This document shows, piece by piece, positions 49,996 to 63,817 of a DNA stretch of 64,000 nucleotides. The notes beneath the pieces are model-generated. The model did no database searches. It saw only the letters and a program-made list of their open reading frames with translations, and was not told where the DNA came from. The stretch spans positions 3,360,001 through 3,424,000 of the forward strand of contig OZ242351.1 of assembly GCA_965208675.1 (NCBI GenBank). The letters run 5' to 3'. The number at the start of each line of letters is the position of its first letter. Within the stretch, counting starts at the first letter, position 1. The position numbers were made by a program, and so were the translations under genes. This stretch comes from Candidatus Poribacteria bacterium. Its GTDB lineage: Bacteria; Poribacteria; WGA-4E; PCPOR2b.

Positions 49996-51942
49996 ATGAT
50001 TCAGAACATCAATCGGAATACGATAATTTTTCCTCTGTTGCTGCTGACAATCGGTTTTGTTGCGGGGTGCGGAAGGACCGATTCCGCCGAAGAACACACA
50101 GCGGAAAAGACTATGGAAGGCATGGTGCAGCATGCGGAACATTCAGAACATGCAGAACACGGTCTCGTCCCTGTCACTTCGGCGGATGGGGAGAAAATTA
50201 GGTACTGGACATGCGTGATGCACCCATCGGTGAAGATGCCCGTTGAAGGGGATTGCCCCGTGTGTAAAATGGATTTAATTCCGGTTTACGAAGGCGTCGG
50301 ACTGACACTTACCGAGAGGCAGAAATCGCTGATTCCGGTTCGCACCGAATCGGTTGAATTTCGCAATCTTAACCGCGAAATCCGGACTGTGGGTGTATTG
50401 GACTACAACGAAACACGTATGGCGTATGCTTCGACCCGAATATCTGGCTGGATTGAAGATCTGCATGTTGACTTCACCGGTATCAATGTCCGTGAAGGCG
50501 ATGAACTCCTTACGATTTATAGCCCGGAACTGTTAGCGGCACAGGAGGAATATCTCACGGCGTTGAAGAGTGTGGATGAATTAAAGGATACACAATACGC
50601 CGAATTAAAACGTACTGTTGAACAGACGCTTTCTGCGGCGAAATCCAAGCTGGAACTGTTCGGATTGACTCCGGAACAGATTGATGACATCCGTGACCAC
50701 GGTGAGGCACGGACGACACTGCCGCTGTATGCGCCTAGCGGCGGAACAGTCATCCACATGAACGTTTACAAGGGGCAACATGTGAAGAGCGGCACAAACC
50801 TGTATCGCATTGCGGATCTGAAAAGCCTGTGGATCATCGCGGATATCTACGAATACGAACTGCCGTGGGTCTATATGGGACAAGATGTCGAGATTACGGC
50901 GCAGTCAATGCCTGACCAAACATTTCATGGGAAAGTCAACTATATCTATCCATACTTTGATGCGCCAACTCGAACGCAGAAAGTCCACATTGAAGTGCCA
51001 AACCCGGACGGACAGTTGCGGCCGGGGATGTATGTCACCCTCCGGCTGAAGCCCACACTAGCGGAAATCTACGCTCGTGAGGCTCAACCCAAAGCTGCGT
51101 ATGCGTGTCCAATGCACCCATGGATAACTTCCGAGATGCCTAGCGATTGCGACATCTGCGGAATGGATCTTGAATCAACGCGCCCTGAAGCGGCTGCCTC
51201 AGGACCGATGGAATCCGTTTGGACCTGCCCGATGCATCCGCAGATAAAACAGTCCGAGTTCGGTGAATGCGACATCTGCGGAATGGACTTAATCGAAAAA
51301 CAGGTGCCAGTGGAGGCGCATGCCCATGCCGGTCATAGCCACTCCGATATGAAATCATCGCGTGAAAGTGCGACGCAAGAGAAGTGGGTTTGCCCGATGC
51401 ATCCCGAAGTTCAAGCGGATGAAATGATAGAATGCGACATCTGCGGAATGGATTTGGTTAAGGACACGGTTCCAGCAGAATCAACCGCCCATGAAGGCGT
51501 GACTTCTGTGCCGCAGGATCCTCCGCTGGTTTTCAAGTACGCTTGTCCCGACCACCCCGACCAGTATGCGACACTGCCGGACAGATGTTCTATAGACGGC
51601 AAACCCCTTGTGATGACAGGAGAGGTCTTAGCGGTGCCTAAGAGCGCCGTTATTGACACCGGGTTACGGAAGATAGTCTTCATCGACCGGGGTGAATCTG
51701 GCTACGAGTTGCTTGAAGTCGAGTTGGGGCCAGAAGCATGGGCGGAGGTTGAACACAACGGCCGGGCGACCAAACGGCGATTTTATCCCGTCATTAAGGG
51801 GTTGAATCCCGGGGATATAGTGGTTACGAATGGGAACTACCTTCTCGATTCACAAACGCAATTAACCGGTTCAGCGGCGGGTGCGTATGGCGGTGCGCTC
51901 GGCGGAGAAGAAGGATCAAGCGCACCATCGCATCGGCATTGA
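49996..51942 (+). CDS. CusB-like RND membrane-fusion protein with five heavy-metal-binding (CPMHP) domains
   Basis: Lipobox VAGC; GWIEDL, IYSPEL.AAQEEYL, LYRIADL, LRPGMY; C.MHP..C..C.MDL four times plus CPDHP. Confidence 0.92.
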   Translation: MIQNINRNTIIFPLLLLTIGFVAGCGRTDSAEEHTAEKTMEGMVQHAEHSEHAEHGLVPVTSADGEKIRYWTCVMHPSVKMPVEGDCPVCKMDLIPVYEGVGLTLTERQKSLIPVRTESVEFRNLNREIRTVGVLDYNETRMAYASTRISGWIEDLHVDFTGINVREGDELLTIYSPELLAAQEEYLTALKSVDELKDTQYAELKRTVEQTLSAAKSKLELFGLTPEQIDDIRDHGEARTTLPLYAPSGGTVIHMNVYKGQHVKSGTNLYRIADLKSLWIIADIYEYELPWVYMGQDVEITAQSMPDQTFHGKVNYIYPYFDAPTRTQKVHIEVPNPDGQLRPGMYVTLRLKPTLAEIYAREAQPKAAYACPMHPWITSEMPSDCDICGMDLESTRPEAAASGPMESVWTCPMHPQIKQSEFGECDICGMDLIEKQVPVEAHAHAGHSHSDMKSSRESATQEKWVCPMHPEVQADEMIECDICGMDLVKDTVPAESTAHEGVTSVPQDPPLVFKYACPDHPDQYATLPDRCSIDGKPLVMTGEVLAVPKSAVIDTGLRKIVFIDRGESGYELLEVELGPEAWAEVEHNGRATKRRFYPVIKGLNPGDIVVTNGNYLLDSQTQLTGSAAGAYGGALGGEEGSSAPSHRH

Positions 51943-51968
51943 TGCCAGTCAGTCTTCAGGAAAGTGCT

Positions 51969-54900
51969 ATGGTAAACCGAATTATCGAAATCTGCATGGG
52001 GAACCGTCTACTCGTCCTTGTTACATTTGTGTTTTTGACAGCCGCGGGCTGGTGGGCGCTGAATCGTACTCCAATCGACGCTATTCCCGACATCGGCGAA
52101 AATCAGGTTATCGTGTTTGCCGATTGGTCCGGGAGGAGTCCGAGAGACATTGAAGATCAGGTAATCTACCCGCTTAGTATTGCCATGCTTGGTATCCCCG
52201 ATGTCAAAGATGTCCGATCCACGTCAATGTTTAGTTTCGGTTACATCAACATCATTTTCAAGGAGAACGTGGACTTCTATTGGGCGAGAACTCGTGTGCT
52301 CGAACGAATGAATCTCGCGCAGAAGGACATGCCCGACGGGGTGGTGCCGGTGTTGGGCCCCGATGCGACCGGCATCAGTCAGGTATTCTGGTACACCGTC
52401 GAAAACGGCTATTACTGTCCTGACCATCCGACAGAACGGTACGAGCAACCCGGAAAGTGCCCTGAAGATGGAAAGCCGCTGGTTGCCTCAAGGCTTGACT
52501 TACATGAACTCCGCACTCTACAAGACTGGACGATTCGATACTATCTCGCTTCAGCCGACGGGGTATCGGAAGTCGCATCCGTCGGCGGTTACGTGAAACA
52601 GTATCAGGTCGATGTCGATCCCAACCTGCTTTTGGCGTATAAAGTGCCGCTCTCAATGGTTTTTAATGCGATTCGGGACAGCAACGTGGATGTCGGTGCG
52701 AAGGTGGTTGAGGAAGGCGGGATGGAGTTCCTTATTCGGGGTTTGGGGTTCATAAAAAGCATAGAGGACATAGAGGACATCGTGGTCAAGGCGCACGAGG
52801 GTGTACCGGTGTATGTCAAGAACCTAGGCACTGTGACGGAGGGGCCCGACTTCCGGCGCGGGGCGTTGGACAAAGCGGGCGTGCCAGCGACCGGCGGTGT
52901 GGTGTTGATGCGTTACGGCGACAATCCGTTGCGTGTAATCGAGAATGTGAAAGCGAAGATTGCTGAGATTGAACCGGGCCTTCCCGCCGGCGTTCGCATT
53001 GTTCCCTTCTACGACAGGAGCCATCTGATTCACCGTGCGGCGGAAACACTAAAAGACACGCTAATCGAGGAAATCGTTGTCGCGGCGGTCGTGATTATCT
53101 TCTTCTTAGGTCAGGTGACCAACAGCCTGATTATCGCACTGGTATTGCCGTTGGGAGTGCTGCTCTCGTTCTTAGGCATGAAACTCGTCGGCTTGCCGTC
53201 GAATATCATGTCCATGGGCGGGATGGCGATTGCCATCGGTGTTATGGTGGATGCAGGCATCGTCATGACGGAAAACATCACCCGCCTACTGCGGGAACCG
53301 CATGAGGGAGAGAGCAAACTGCAGGTCGCAACGCGTGCGGCAAAGGAGGTCGGACCGGCGATATTCTACGCGATGCTGATTATTATCGTCGCGTTTATCC
53401 CGGTGTTTTCGTTGACGGGACAAGCGGGCAAGCTGTTCAAACCGTTGGCGTTCACCAAAACTTTCGCGATGCTCGGCGCGGCGATTGTCGCGATTAGCCT
53501 CGTTCCGGTGTTGGCATCCATTCTACTTTCTGATCCAACGCGCCGCCCCAACATTTTCGGCCGCATTATTGCAATCGCCAGTTTCCCTTTGAGAAAATTC
53601 GCCGACGGTATAACCTGGATTTTAAAAGCCGTCTACGGTCCAATTATTCGATTTGCTGTCAAAAACATATTCACCAAGCTGCTTGTAGTTGCTTTGGCCG
53701 CGGCAATTTTGATCGCTAGTATTCCGCTCACGCCCTTCTACAAAAATATCGGGCAGGAGTTCATGCCTCCGCTCAACGAAGGGGATTTGCTGTTCATGCC
53801 GGTGCTGCTGCCCGGTGCGTCGATTACGCAAGCCAAAGATGTGATGTCAAAGCAAGACATGATTATGAACCGTTTCCCCGAGGTTTCGATGGTGGTGGGA
53901 AAACTCGGGAGAGCGACAACTGCAACCGATCCGGCTCCAATTGGGATGTTTGAAACCATCGTTAACATCGTTGACCCTTCTACGTGGCCGCGGCGTGCTG
54001 TCAAATCGGGTGCTGCGGCGAACCTGGTTTCCAGCGTTGCCGAACGACTTTTGAGCGCCGAAATCCTGAACAAGGAACATGCAGGACATATAACTACAGA
54101 TGTTACAGCGCGTATCGCCGATGATGCGGCGGCGCGGATTGATGAAATGGCGACGGAGTATCACAATCCCTTTATCACTGTTGAACAACGTGAACAGCTG
54201 TACCGAGTTTGGTTGTTGCGGGTGGTTATGGAAAAACTTCTGGCGGAGATGGGCGAATCAAGTCAACTGGGCAACAGCGAATCAGAAAGCCGACTTCACG
54301 CACTCGCCTCCGAGATTGAACCGACGCTTGAGCACAAAACCTACTTTCGCACAAAGACCCGCGCAGAACTGATTAACGATCTCACCGAATCGTGCCGTAT
54401 GCCCGGCGTTTCTCCAATTATGACCCAGCCGATTCGCAACCGCATCGACATGTTGGCGACAGGAATTCAAACACCGATTGGTATCAAGGTGTTCGGTACT
54501 GATTTGTCAAAAATTGAGGAAATTGCGGTTCGCATTGAGCAGGAATTGCTCAAACTCCCGGGCGCCGTGGGGCCGTATGCCGAGCGGATTGGAAATAAAC
54601 CGTACCTCGAATTTCATATCGATCGGAAAGAGGCGGCGCGCTACGGGATTAAGATTGGGGCGGTGCAACAGATTATCATGACCGCGATTGGCGGCATGAA
54701 CCTCACAACTACGGTCGAAGGGCGAGAACGTTTTCCGGTTCGCATTCGCTATAAACGGGAATTGCGCGACAACGTTGAAGCGTTGAAGCGGGTGCTAGTG
54801 CCAACGCCCAAGGGCATACAGATTCCGCTAGGGCAATTGGTCAGAATTGAGCGCCGCCCGGGTCCAGCGAAAATCTCATCCGAAAACACCTTGTTGTTTT

Positions 54901-55739
54901 CCCGGGTGTTTTGCGATGTGGACGCAGATGTCATCGGGCTAGTCAACTTCGTAGAGGCGGCGCAGAAGACACTCGACGAGAAAATTAAGCCGACGCTGCC
55001 GCAGGGCTATTTCTATTCATTCAGTGGCCAGTATGAAGCGGAGTTGGAAGCACGATCCCGGTTGCTGGTTGTTGTTCCAGTCTGCATCGCAGTGATTTTC
55101 ATGTTGCTTTATGTCAAGTTCCGTTCGCCATCCGCGATGCTAGCGATATTCCTCGCGCTTCCGTTCGCCTTTATCGGTGGAATGTGGATGCAGTGGTTGA
55201 TGCAATATGTGCCCCCCGCGCTCGGCGGCGGATATGCGATCAAATACAGCACCGCGGTGTGGGTCGGGTACATCGCCCTTTTTGGTGTGGCAGTTGAGGA
55301 CGGGATTGTATTGATGGAATACCTGCTTGAGCGGGTACGAAGAGGCGAACCGGTCAAGGAAGCCGCCGTCAACGCGGGTTTGTTGCGCGTGCGTCCCATC
55401 ATCATGACGACCGCTACGACAGTGCTGGCACTCTCTCCCATTATGCTGTATGAAATCAGCACCAACACCGGGGCGGAGTTAATGAAGCCAATTGCGGTGC
55501 CGACCTTCGGCGGAATGATCACTGCGACAGTTGCCAACTTGATTTTAGCGCCCGTGCTGTTTTCGCTGTTTTATTGGGTAGAAAACCTGGGTGCTCGGCA
55601 TCGGGGTTCGGAAGGCGGGGAAACTTTGGAATCAGAAGAGCCACCCGTACCATTGGCGGAAGATGAGACTACTGGGGAAGAAATTCCGGCTAGCGACGAC
55701 GAAACCACGGAGAACGGGGATTCGGAAGTACCGAAGTAA
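51969..55739 (+). CDS. cusA: CusA/SilA-family heavy-metal RND permease
   Basis: PIDAIPD, GPDATG, AIAIGVMVDA, and the three metal-binding Met motifs LLFMP / APIGMFET / IRNRIDML; R.RPIIMT. Confidence 0.92.
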   Translation: MVNRIIEICMGNRLLVLVTFVFLTAAGWWALNRTPIDAIPDIGENQVIVFADWSGRSPRDIEDQVIYPLSIAMLGIPDVKDVRSTSMFSFGYINIIFKENVDFYWARTRVLERMNLAQKDMPDGVVPVLGPDATGISQVFWYTVENGYYCPDHPTERYEQPGKCPEDGKPLVASRLDLHELRTLQDWTIRYYLASADGVSEVASVGGYVKQYQVDVDPNLLLAYKVPLSMVFNAIRDSNVDVGAKVVEEGGMEFLIRGLGFIKSIEDIEDIVVKAHEGVPVYVKNLGTVTEGPDFRRGALDKAGVPATGGVVLMRYGDNPLRVIENVKAKIAEIEPGLPAGVRIVPFYDRSHLIHRAAETLKDTLIEEIVVAAVVIIFFLGQVTNSLIIALVLPLGVLLSFLGMKLVGLPSNIMSMGGMAIAIGVMVDAGIVMTENITRLLREPHEGESKLQVATRAAKEVGPAIFYAMLIIIVAFIPVFSLTGQAGKLFKPLAFTKTFAMLGAAIVAISLVPVLASILLSDPTRRPNIFGRIIAIASFPLRKFADGITWILKAVYGPIIRFAVKNIFTKLLVVALAAAILIASIPLTPFYKNIGQEFMPPLNEGDLLFMPVLLPGASITQAKDVMSKQDMIMNRFPEVSMVVGKLGRATTATDPAPIGMFETIVNIVDPSTWPRRAVKSGAAANLVSSVAERLLSAEILNKEHAGHITTDVTARIADDAAARIDEMATEYHNPFITVEQREQLYRVWLLRVVMEKLLAEMGESSQLGNSESESRLHALASEIEPTLEHKTYFRTKTRAELINDLTESCRMPGVSPIMTQPIRNRIDMLATGIQTPIGIKVFGTDLSKIEEIAVRIEQELLKLPGAVGPYAERIGNKPYLEFHIDRKEAARYGIKIGAVQQIIMTAIGGMNLTTTVEGRERFPVRIRYKRELRDNVEALKRVLVPTPKGIQIPLGQLVRIERRPGPAKISSENTLLFSRVFCDVDADVIGLVNFVEAAQKTLDEKIKPTLPQGYFYSFSGQYEAELEARSRLLVVVPVCIAVIFMLLYVKFRSPSAMLAIFLALPFAFIGGMWMQWLMQYVPPALGGGYAIKYSTAVWVGYIALFGVAVEDGIVLMEYLLERVRRGEPVKEAAVNAGLLRVRPIIMTTATTVLALSPIMLYEISTNTGAELMKPIAVPTFGGMITATVANLILAPVLFSLFYWVENLGARHRGSEGGETLESEEPPVPLAEDETTGEEIPASDDETTENGDSEVPK

Positions 55740-62176: not shown

Positions 62177-63817
62177 TTGGTGAAAACTTTCAAAAACAGA
62201 ATTTCGCTCAACCTTGACGACACAGCAGAAGTGTCCGTGAACGGTTTCATCGCGCCGGTTGAGTACTCTGCTGGAGATTTCCATAAGAGGTGGGACGCAT
62301 TGGCGAATCTAAGGGTCGCTGAGCCAGAGATGCAGTATTCTGCGTCAGTTTTTCGTGCGTTTCTCCCGTCCAAAGCGGTTTCGGCAGGTGAAGTCTGGCG
62401 TATTGAGGAAGCGGGGGCACTGGCGTTGTTGAGGCAACTTCACCCTAATCCACATCTGAATTTGCTCCATGATGTAGGAGACTCCTGTGGATTGTGGGCA
62501 TGTCTGCGTTCCTATAACAATGAACTTGCCCATGTTGTGTTCCGCATTCATGCAGAATTTGCGTTGACGGACGGTTGGTTCACACCCTCCCAATTCGCCG
62601 GACATTTGGTTATCGATCGAAATGAAGACAAGATTGTGTTTTTCCAGATGCGCGTACCTGAAGGTGTAATGAACTTTGATGCTAATTGGCATACGACGGA
62701 AGAAGGGTGGAGACCAGATACGATAATTACCGATACCGGCTTTTGTCCGCAAATGGAATTGCGTGCCGGTATTGAACCCGATGTGCAGAATCTTGAATTC
62801 ATAGAAGCTATTACGGAAGAAGAGGCGGCGCACAAACTGATACTGTGCTTTTACGAATCGGAGCAAATTCATTGGGTGCCGTTGGACGAAGCATTGGAGA
62901 TTGCACAGGTACAGCAGAAACACGTTCACGCCATCTCAGTAGATGGGCCGCTAGCTGACGAATCGTGCTGAGGCAGTGGCAAACTCTTGAGGGCAGTTGC
63001 TCTCTCACACGACCGGGTCATCAAATTCTTGAACGAGAATTTCATCAACACTTGGGCAACCAATGCCGAATTAGGGCGTAAACCCCAATTGCGCGACCCT
63101 ATTGCCAAGAGACGCGAGCGCGAGTCCAAGACCTTTGACACAACGTCCCCATTGGTACAAGCAATCATGAAGGGCTGGAAGAAAGGTTCACCGGTGGATT
63201 GTATGGTTATATCACCGAACTTTGAACTGAGAGGGAAACTTCCACTCAATGAATATACTAGCAACGCCTTGGATGGTGGGAGAACGGCGGCGGAAAACTA
63301 CCGACTGTTTCTCGTAGAATCCTTAGAAGGGAAACGTCCCGGGCTTAGTCGAGACAACTCTTTCGGATATTTATTTGGCGGAGTAGATGATAGCGCCGTG
63401 GAACCGCTCTTAAGTGATTTGAACGTTGTCCTCAACAGTGAGCAACCCTCGCTGGAAGTGTTGGATGTTTTTCGCACCCCAACGCCGGATTGTCAGGATT
63501 ACACTGTCGTAAAAATTGATGTCACGGCGTTTGATACCGGTGGGACGCTAGCGATTGATATCCGAGTCGGCGGCGCCGAACTGGGAGGTTCTTTCTATTT
63601 GTACGATAGCGATGTCGAAATCCCCACAAGCCGCGGAGAGCGTTATTATCACTCGTTTGCCAATGCGACGGATATGCCTCGCAAGGGAGCGGCGCAAATC
63701 CGGTATCCTTTCCATCGACCTCAGGTGTTTAAGCTGGTAGTTGCGGGGGAGGCGGAGAATGGGGACGGGAGTGCCAACGCCTTTCATGCGAGAATTTCTG
63801 TAGAGCAGGCAAATTGA
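62177..63817 (+). CDS. Selenoprotein N (SELENON/SEPN1)-like protein, 546 aa, with an in-frame UGA (62969-62971) read as selenocysteine
   Basis: ORFs 62177..62971 and 62987..63817 share a frame; readthrough gives GPLADESC-U-GSGKLLRAVALSHDRVIKFLNENFINTW, matching animal SelN [16 protein letters not shown]...[27 protein letters not shown] and PQMEL are also conserved. Confidence 0.88.
62989..63004 (+). promoter_or_regulatory. Candidate bacterial SECIS hairpin
   Basis: GAGGGC-AGTT-GCTCTC; loop begins 23 nt after the UGA and has GU at loop positions 2-3. Confidence 0.55.

Follow-up and report, generated by a model that had tools for sequence, protein, structure and literature searches.

A poribacterial gene interrupted by an in-frame TGA is predicted to encode a selenocysteine-containing protein of the selenoprotein N family

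Introduction

Selenoprotein N (SelN, also named SELENON or SEPN1) is a human disease protein, the one concerned in SEPN1-related myopathy, and is regarded as a reductase of oxidized partners such as SERCA2. Bacteria have their own thioredoxin-fold selenoproteins, in which the selenocysteine (Sec) insertion sequence (SECIS) lies within the reading frame; these include Sec forms of DsbA-like, Prx-like, and SelW-like proteins, with fdhF as the model case of in-frame insertion. Reviews still call the catalytic site of SelN "predicted," and a Cys-Sec redox center has been proposed for the animal protein by analogy with the GCUG motif of thioredoxin reductase (accessible text of PMC12839072). SelN was called animal-specific in 2007 (PMC2375036). 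It is present in the sponge Amphimedon (PMC3473315, Table 1), and in a 2020 survey of eukaryotic algae, SELENON is one of the selenoproteins with the narrowest distribution (PMC7539508); as far as the accessible parts of these sources go, the view of SelN as animal-only is thus that of 2007 and does not fit the algal listing of 2020. An earlier note on the DNA analyzed here calls SelN eukaryotic and mainly animal. Here, we analyze a 64,000-nucleotide (nt) stretch (the window) of a Candidatus Poribacteria genome that consists of a single contig of 4.89 Mb. We conclude, with a probability of about 0.9, that positions 62180 (or 62177) to 63817 of the window form a single gene for a predicted Sec-containing protein of the SelN family.

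The encoded protein resembles animal SelN throughout the luminal core: about 350 alignment columns are homologous, conserved blocks, including PQMEL, are common to both, and Sec is aligned with Sec within S-C-U-G-S-G-[KR]. A predicted RNA hairpin also lies beside the UGA of the bacterial gene; the hairpin at this place in SELENON is called the "SRE" (accessible text of PMC8584023). The bacterial protein differs in having neither the N-terminal transmembrane segment (a type II membrane anchor) nor the luminal EF-hand, a calcium sensor, and in adding a C-terminal beta-sandwich of about 130 amino acids (aa). Animal SelN is luminal, whereas the window copy is predicted to be cytoplasmic, and the bacterial genes occur in multicopy tandem arrays. 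Furthermore, animals use a SECIS in the 3' untranslated region, whereas insertion in bacteria must use a SECIS within the open reading frame (ORF).

As in the GCUG motif of thioredoxin reductase, Cys and Sec are adjacent and followed by Gly. However, the motif of the reductase sits on the flexible C-terminal tail of a flavoenzyme, whereas here it is internal and, in the predicted model, at the N terminus of a helix. With the bacterial thioredoxin-fold selenoproteins, the gene shares a UGA at the predicted redox position at the start of helix 1, a hairpin with GU in its loop shortly after the UGA, and the coexistence of Sec and Cys forms. It departs from them in its adjacent Cys-Sec pair, as opposed to CxxU or UxxC, and in belonging to a family that has large flanking beta domains and is matched by no entry of Pfam or NCBIfam. 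By structure and by profile, the central domain comes closest to Thioredox_DsbH (DUF255; Pfam PF03190; PDB IDs 7tkv and 3ira), but all matches to it fall below the Pfam cut-off, and we do not claim membership.

Results

The ORFs at 62177..62971 (+ strand, 264 aa, TTG start, stop included) and 62987..63817 (+ strand, 276 aa) lie in the same frame. The DNA at their junction reads GAA TCG TGC TGA GGC AGT GGC AAA CTC TTG, with an in-frame TGA at 62969-62971. The earlier note had joined this pair through TGC-TGA-GGC, and both the ORF list and the junction DNA bear it out; the peptide strings that it quoted are all present in the read-through translation. When the TGA is translated as U, the frame yields 546 residues with U265 in the context HAISVDGPLADESC-U-GSGKLLRAVALSHDRVIKFLNENFINTW, and the motif around the predicted Sec is S-C-U-G-S-G-K. 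The single read-through frame of the "546-aa SelN with Sec265" put forward in that note therefore stands, while its numbering probably shifts by one: since a 92%-identical paralog (paralog B) has ATG at the equivalent codon, the true start is probably GTG 62180, giving 545 aa and Sec264. A TAA 13 codons above TTG 62177 closes the frame and leaves no room for a signal peptide. The gene was expected to be split into two hypothetical proteins by standard annotation, and NCBI does list the halves of the family as "hypothetical protein"; the name "BrnA antitoxin family protein" was given once to a piece of the family. The features of the gene are as follows.

62180..62968, + strand: the 263 codons, counted from GTG 62180, that precede the Sec codon (ORF, translation, model, and alignment to animal SelN)
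Within 62180..62968, + strand: predicted SelN core domain, N-terminal and rich in beta strands (about aa 15-200), together with strand 1 of the thioredoxin-like domain (model)
62969..62971, + strand: in-frame TGA, predicted Sec264/265 in S-C-U-G-S-G-K (conserved in homologs, aligned to the animal Sec, no variant in contigs of four runs)
62989..63004, + strand: SECIS-like hairpin GAGGGC-AGUU-GCUCUC (folds and comparison of 78 distinct sequences)
62972..63814, + strand: coding part after the Sec codon (model, dN/dS of 0.13 to 0.28, alignment)
To about aa 385 (nt 63334), + strand: predicted remainder of the thioredoxin-like domain (model)
About aa 413-545 (nt 63416-63814), + strand: predicted C-terminal beta-sandwich, preceded by a low-confidence linker (model; the beta-sandwich is not in animal SelN)
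63815..63817, + strand: terminal stop, also TGA (where homologs end)

The in-frame TGA is conserved well beyond this gene, to a degree that chance does not come near. Searched against its own genome, the read-through protein finds five copies at 38 to 100% identity (38 to 92% for the other copies), and each of the five has one TGA in the match, always inside DDESC-U-[GA][SN]GK. Matches occur in 131 of the 176 genomes of the phylum; by family, these are 10 of 28 genomes in f1, 10 of 11 in f2, and 110 of 112 in f4, with none in the other eight families. Among the phylum matches listed, 150 of 150 have one in-frame TGA, and there are 920 further matches beside these. The relatives frequently carry copies in tandem, up to three per 4.6-kb locus, and tandem copies were seen at many of the phylum loci examined. 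In a search of 1.8 billion cluster representatives, 478 proteins were found at an E value of ≤1e-3; 81 of the 150 representatives listed stop exactly at the Cys preceding the TGA codon, because gene callers halt at the conserved TGA. Among 401 sampled genomes of Planctomycetota, 52 match at an E value of ≤1e-3 and 12 at ≤1e-25; 11 of the latter 12 best matches have the TGA, and the twelfth ends short of the site. A profile search for related loci with a revised alignment gave only 2 loci, so the range described here is that within the two phyla Poribacteria and Planctomycetota. Far from a lone hidden case, the gene is one of a large family, with five copies in this genome, tandem arrays in relatives, and members in Planctomycetota.

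Purifying selection acts on both sides of the TGA. The ratio of nonsynonymous to synonymous substitution rates (dN/dS) after the TGA is 0.13 to 0.28 in all seven ortholog pairs (278 to 281 codons), and before it the ratio is 0.08 to 0.27 in the five pairs with an estimable dS. Together with the five own-genome copies and the 150 listed matches, these values agree with the conservation across orthologs and paralogs that had been proposed as a check. Contigs of four public runs over 62700-63250 show synonymous differences at 62974, 62977, and 62980 and none at 62969-62971, and one 1028-nt contig from a separate study covers the TGA site; one of the runs, X1, may be the source sample. In runs X1, X7, and X9, contig depth rises about tenfold at 63023-63060, over the codons of the conserved FLNENFINTW block, presumably from many paralogs and relatives in the same metagenomes.

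Homology to animal SelN was found by pairwise and by profile methods. With phmmer, the matches include P0255 (E value of 3.6e-20), a wombat protein with the UniRef name "EF-hand domain-containing protein," and P0261 (E value of 2e-19); BLASTP gives E values of 2e-28 and 2e-27, the former with 29% identity over residues 84-294. A search with P0261 leads to mollusc, echinoderm, amphioxus, fish, and mammal proteins named selenoprotein N or SELENON by NCBI and UniRef. When a profile of 20 bacterial sequences was compared with a profile of 10 animal SelN sequences by hhalign, the probability was 100% (E value of 1.3e-55, 348 columns), with bacterial columns 28-382 matching animal columns 126-553 of 562. 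In this alignment, U is aligned to U, DESC-U-GSGK lies over the animal motif, and similarity continues for about 118 residues beyond Sec, which is the similarity to SELENON past the UGA that had been claimed. The starfish SelN P0317 has DDQSC-[U]-GSGR, its U stored as C, aligned to DESC-[TGA]-GSGK of the window. The consensus of the ten animal sequences matches, around the site, the human sequence given in the earlier note, the comparison being with that consensus and not with the human protein itself. In the ESM Atlas, the nearest cluster to the Cys-form homolog P0146 is automatically named "Selenoprotein N" (0.93), followed by unnamed Planctomycetota clusters. The membrane anchor and EF-hand of animal SelN are not present: Pfam reports no EF-hand, the alignment starts at animal column 126, and the window protein begins 14 residues before the first aligned block. 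The term "full-length SelN" thus overstates the case for a SelN core without the transmembrane and EF-hand part and with an extra C-terminal domain.

The genome also has the genes needed to insert Sec. A search for selA, selB, selC, and selD had been called for, and the tRNA-Sec, selA, selB, and selD were all found. The tRNA-Sec scores 77.5 bits in Rfam (cut-off of 47) and has the anticodon tca (ARAGORN), and selA (595.6 bits), selB (367.5 bits), and selD (375.8 bits) are all above their curated cut-offs. The selA, selB, and tRNA-Sec genes form one cluster at C1:2131409-2134883 (L001, L009, L010). The selD gene lies away from it, at G000:C1:4649539-4650462 (L018), has one in-frame TGA of its own, and is probably a selenoprotein gene itself. 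Judged from these sequence matches, the genome encodes a full Sec-insertion machinery.

A hairpin with a 6-bp stem, GAGGGC-AGUU-GCUCUC (62989-63004), starts 17 nt after the UGA and has GU in its tetraloop; in relatives, a longer alternative stem starts within the UGA. We compared 78 distinct 48-nt sequences out of 105 Sec-form copies. The stem cells are paired in 91.7% of cases, versus 44.9 to 77.6% when the partners are slid by 1 to 3 columns, and the covariation score of 0.198, versus 0.161 in shuffles, was reached by none of 500 shuffles. Pair 24-33 occurs as GC (38), GU (14), and AU (11), and pair 25-32 as GU (40), GC (35), and AU (2). All loops contain GU; the forms are AGGU, AGUU, and, where the register is shifted, GGUC. 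In four Planctomycetota genes, the hairpin lies 5 to 6 nt nearer the UGA, with the loop CGUGC or CGUGA. Within this second type, a pair of neighboring base pairs flips from C-G to G-C (CC/GG to GG/CC) between L065 and L067, with amino acid changes on both arms. The Escherichia coli fdhF SECIS has G23 and U24 in its loop, and the G and U of this Planctomycetota hairpin type occupy the very same positions. Based on these comparisons, the hairpin is likely a SECIS.

Residues other than Sec are also found at the site. Among 11 full-length database homologs that span it, the residue is Gly in 9, Thr in 1, and Trp in 1; this Gly-rich set is misleading, because only such copies are seen whole by gene callers. 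Of the 21 best orthologs in the subgroup that bears signal peptides, 12 have TGA and 9 have no stop; the site could be located in 20 of these orthologs, as TGA in 12, GGA in 4, and GGC in 4. Trp is found in P0123/P0015, and Cys-Cys forms in the metagenomic bacterial homologs P0133, P0146, P0128, and P0160. The replacements are thus one or two base changes away from TGA or are Cys. Since GGA and TGG are one base from TGA, they fit an ancestral TGA that was lost now and then. Even within one ortholog group, with 69 to 80% identity to P0003, the site switches from species to species between Sec (TGA) and Gly (GGA or GGC), with L099, L101-L105, L108, and L112 on one side and L094-L098, L100, L106, L107, L109-L111, and L114 on the other.

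An AlphaFold2 model from a 35-row alignment (mean predicted local distance difference test [pLDDT] score of 84.1; predicted template modeling [pTM] score of 0.69) proposes a beta-rich N-terminal domain (about residues 15-200) followed by a central alpha/beta domain (about 205-385); a disordered linker then leads to a beta-sandwich (about 415-545). The central domain has a strand at 249-254, a loop ending in Cys263-Sec264, and a helix at 265-272, with pLDDT values of about 85 to 94. In thioredoxin folds, this is the place of the CxxC motif, and the model suggests a thioredoxin-like domain whose helix 1 begins with Cys-Sec. The elements of the model follow the order of the beta-alpha-beta-alpha-beta-beta-alpha core of that fold. 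Foldseek searches of the PDB matched the central part weakly to the Thioredox_DsbH protein 7tkv (E value of 4.9e-4) and to 3ira (7.3e-4), and they also gave the beta-sandwich modules PliG (4dzg) and the ColH collagen-binding domain (3jqw). The Pfam family Thioredox_DsbH was matched by 8 of 39 family members below the cut-off (best E value of 0.0083), with no match for the window's own domain.

Discussion

The proposal of a single Sec-containing protein has to be weighed against other accounts of the TGA. Gene callers, and the NCBI entries that list the halves as hypothetical proteins, treat it as a true stop; there would then be two proteins, of 264 aa and of 276 aa, the latter restarting at TTG 62987, as a split gene or a two-subunit system. 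A TTG does stand 16 nt past the TGA. However, this codon is often CTG in relatives, so that a conserved restart is absent, and single-polypeptide homologs exist with Cys, Gly, or Trp at the site. In the model, moreover, the thioredoxin-like domain would run across the TGA, which falls between its strand 1 and its helix 1, and both the Sec at the aligned position of animal SelN and the Sec machinery of the genome speak for read-through. We therefore regard a pair of separate proteins as very unlikely. The UGA might instead be decoded as Gly, Trp, or Cys, via read-through, a suppressor, or an altered code, in keeping with the Gly and Trp residues of some orthologs and with the use of UGA for Gly or Trp in other bacteria (NCBI tables 25 and 4). 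We give this little credence: the gene and its homologs terminate on TGA at the C terminus of the family, selA, selB, and other genes searched have no internal stops, the residue in animals is Sec, and tRNA-Sec (tca), SelA, SelB, SelD, and a SECIS-like hairpin are all present. A pseudogene, a private nonsense mutation, or a sequencing error at 62969-62971 could be suspected from the damage found elsewhere in two of the five own-genome paralogs (B breaks off near aa 385, and a transposase gene interrupts D). This is refuted for practical purposes by the same TGA in all 150 homologs among those listed, by its presence in independent assemblies, and by the dN/dS of 0.13 to 0.28 in a frame that stays open to the family's usual C terminus.

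Several observations weigh against a Sec-inserting, thioredoxin-like SelN protein, or against parts of this proposal. The presence of Gly or Trp in place of Sec in some orthologs means that the protein can persist without Sec. As regards the hairpin, the 75 nt after the UGA in the window fold no better than shuffles (minimum free energy, z of 0.43). The stem overlaps the codons of a conserved peptide, L-R-A-x-x-L, and pairing remains at 89.3% after the columns are shuffled; because of this overlap, conservation of the hairpin may be largely a protein constraint. Changes in the stem are mainly wobble steps among G-C, G-U, and A-U, and all eight Gly-form copies shown keep the stem sequence, although three of them (L102-L104) have lost the G in the loop. 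The thioredoxin-fold assignment is based on a predicted model and weak matches, and in the PDB a sequence search gave only chance matches (E values of >1) and the domain profile gave none. The alternative start TTG 62177 lies directly before GTG 62180, the more probable of the two. Finally, the gene neighborhood hints at no substrate or partner; the upstream neighbors are CusB/CusA-like efflux, DUF5916, GNAT, and ABC exporter genes, and downstream there are two unassigned ORFs on the opposite strand.

For the single Sec-containing protein, a possible sequence of events can be outlined. SelB carrying Sec-tRNA(Sec) would bind the hairpin at 62989-63004 (loop AGUU), and Sec would be inserted at the UGA. 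Cys263 and Sec264 may then cycle between a selenol/thiol and a selenenylsulfide state, as at the GCUG end of thioredoxin reductase. The protein might thus be a reductase of the thiol-disulfide (or sulfenate/peroxide) type, with other proteins as its partners and the flanking beta domains holding them. We consider this redox mechanism somewhat more probable than not.

Where this chemistry would take place may differ among family members. The ortholog group of the window gene has no signal peptide, and for this reason the window copy should act in the cytoplasm. By contrast with this group, 21 of 23 metagenomic N-terminal halves start with a hydrophobic or lipoprotein-type leader (read by eye); the exceptions are P0257, which starts with an extracytoplasmic function (ECF) sigma factor domain, and P0156, whose leader is ambiguous. 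N-terminal ECF sigma factor domains are found in P0128 (a Cys form) and in P0257 (which ends at the Sec site), some ECF fusions run through a membrane segment, and in P0242 a SelN-like domain is fused to leucine-rich repeats. Since most relatives are of the exported or lipoprotein type and some are fused to an ECF sigma factor, a role of the family in envelope redox sensing or redox repair is plausible.

The presence of a SelN-like gene in a probable sponge symbiont raised the question of host-symbiont transfer. We built an unrooted tree (IQ-TREE quick mode, LG+C20, 387 columns) from 66 chosen rows, namely, 13 animal, 14 Poribacteria, 10 Planctomycetota, and 29 metagenomic sequences; sponge, cnidarian, and algal SelN are not included. 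The 13 animal sequences form one clade (SH-aLRT of 100) on a stem of 1.26, and the Poribacteria lie apart from them, nested with Planctomycetota and metagenomic sequences from bacteria. The rows nearest to the animals (weak support of 82) are proteins of bacterial type in which the animal "DQSC" recurs: it is the end of P0187 and P0230, and P0199 groups there but has a Cys-Ala site. A tree constrained to join the animals with the main Poribacteria clade is worse by 37.5 log-likelihood units (lnL), with a p value of 0.033 in the approximately unbiased (AU) test (34 rows, LG+G4, the group having been chosen after the first tree was seen).

A recent capture of the poribacterial genes from the sponge host, as a eukaryote-like symbiont protein, would suit the habitat: the datasets that contain the window stretch are mostly labeled sponge metagenomes, the homolog clusters are named Candidatus Poribacteria, and sponges have SelN (accessible part of PMC3473315). 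We nonetheless consider it improbable. In the tree, within its sampling, the animals stand as one clade on a long stem apart from the Poribacteria, and the joint grouping is disfavored by the AU test; in addition, signal and lipoprotein peptides of bacterial type, the in-ORF hairpin, the lack of an EF-hand, and the ECF sigma factor fusions point to bacterial genes. The trees thus lend no support to host-symbiont transfer, and the sequences carry no sign of a recent sponge-symbiont exchange. Because the tree has no root, it does not give the direction of an older link between bacteria and animals.

A broader scenario can be offered tentatively, and we rate it as doubtful. SelN might be bacterial at its root, as a group of mostly exported thioredoxin-fold Cys-Sec oxidoreductases, from whose "DQSC-U" subgroup animal and algal SELENON would derive by one ancient horizontal transfer. 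The SRE would then be a vestige of the bacterial in-frame SECIS, and the arrays of sponge symbionts would be a lineage-specific expansion. If SelN had such a bacterial root, the compartment that received it would be topologically equal to the periplasm, the SRE hairpin concerned would be the one whose mutations cause myopathy, and the tandem arrays would amount to a redox toolkit and to a large share of the symbionts' selenoproteome.

What is new here is a branch of SelN that belongs to bacteria, has a different build, and has multiplied massively; the mode of Sec insertion is already known for bacteria. Pfam and NCBIfam (June 2026 release) have no family for the read-through protein, apart from one chance match to a lasso-peptide family (E value of 0.2). 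A bacterial SelN is not described in the searchable literature, including the main text of prokaryotic selenoproteome reviews, BSepDB (accessible text of PMC13326102), and work on Planctomycetes genomes, a scope that leaves supplements and subscription journals outside and a prior mention possible. The idea that a 2020 PNAS paper on SEPN1 used the structure of a bacterial ortholog was dropped, as bacteria are not mentioned in the accessible text of that paper (PMC7474598). Sequence and profile searches of the PDB found no solved structure of SelN or any relative. The bacterial branch offers natural Cys variants and anchor-free soluble forms for structure determination and enzymology, deep alignments for judging patient variants, and a testable account of the origin of a selenoprotein once called animal-specific. 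It also implies that selenium use by sponge symbionts is undercounted, since the family is split into hypothetical proteins and absent from Pfam and NCBIfam yet occurs in 131 of the 176 genomes of the phylum.

Several further copies in the same genome are rearranged. A tandem SelN-like array lies at G000:C1:2539489-2545255 (loci L022-L025, L028, L029). Within it, paralog A (377 aa) has no C-terminal domain, and paralog B (92% identical to the window gene) stops near aa 385. Next comes paralog C (512 aa, 40% identity), and after it a stretch with 88% identity to the window protein over its residues 378-546. The array looks as if it arose by insertion of C and its flanks into B or by recombination among copies. 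Paralog D (G000:C1:903626-906132; L026, L027) keeps the TGA but enters a transposase-like ORF, presumably of the IS5 type, after about aa 412; its C-terminal domain follows about 1.1 kb further along, which marks D as an interrupted copy.

Outside this genome, P0017 (541 aa) is one ORF that runs from just past the Sec site of one SelN-like copy, through the C-terminal domain of that copy, and then by way of a linker into a second copy, of which it covers the N-terminal half up to DDESC. It may represent two copies fused in frame, possibly a protein with two Sec residues. A second candidate selenoprotein family (428 to 519 aa) was seen in the Planctomycetota loci L079, L081, L088, L089, and L092. 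Its members begin with a leader peptide, contain the motif LDDEFC-U-ANGR, and have a long C-terminal part that is helical; a hairpin with GU in its loop lies about 17 nt after the UGA. They matched the SelN query weakly, near the redox site, and have no Pfam or NCBIfam match.

Further upstream in the window, positions 49996-55739 encode a pair of proteins for heavy-metal efflux: an adaptor of the CusB/HlyD type, in which the heavy-metal-binding repeat (HMBD) occurs four times, and a pump of the AcrB/CusA type, which has an HMBD match too.

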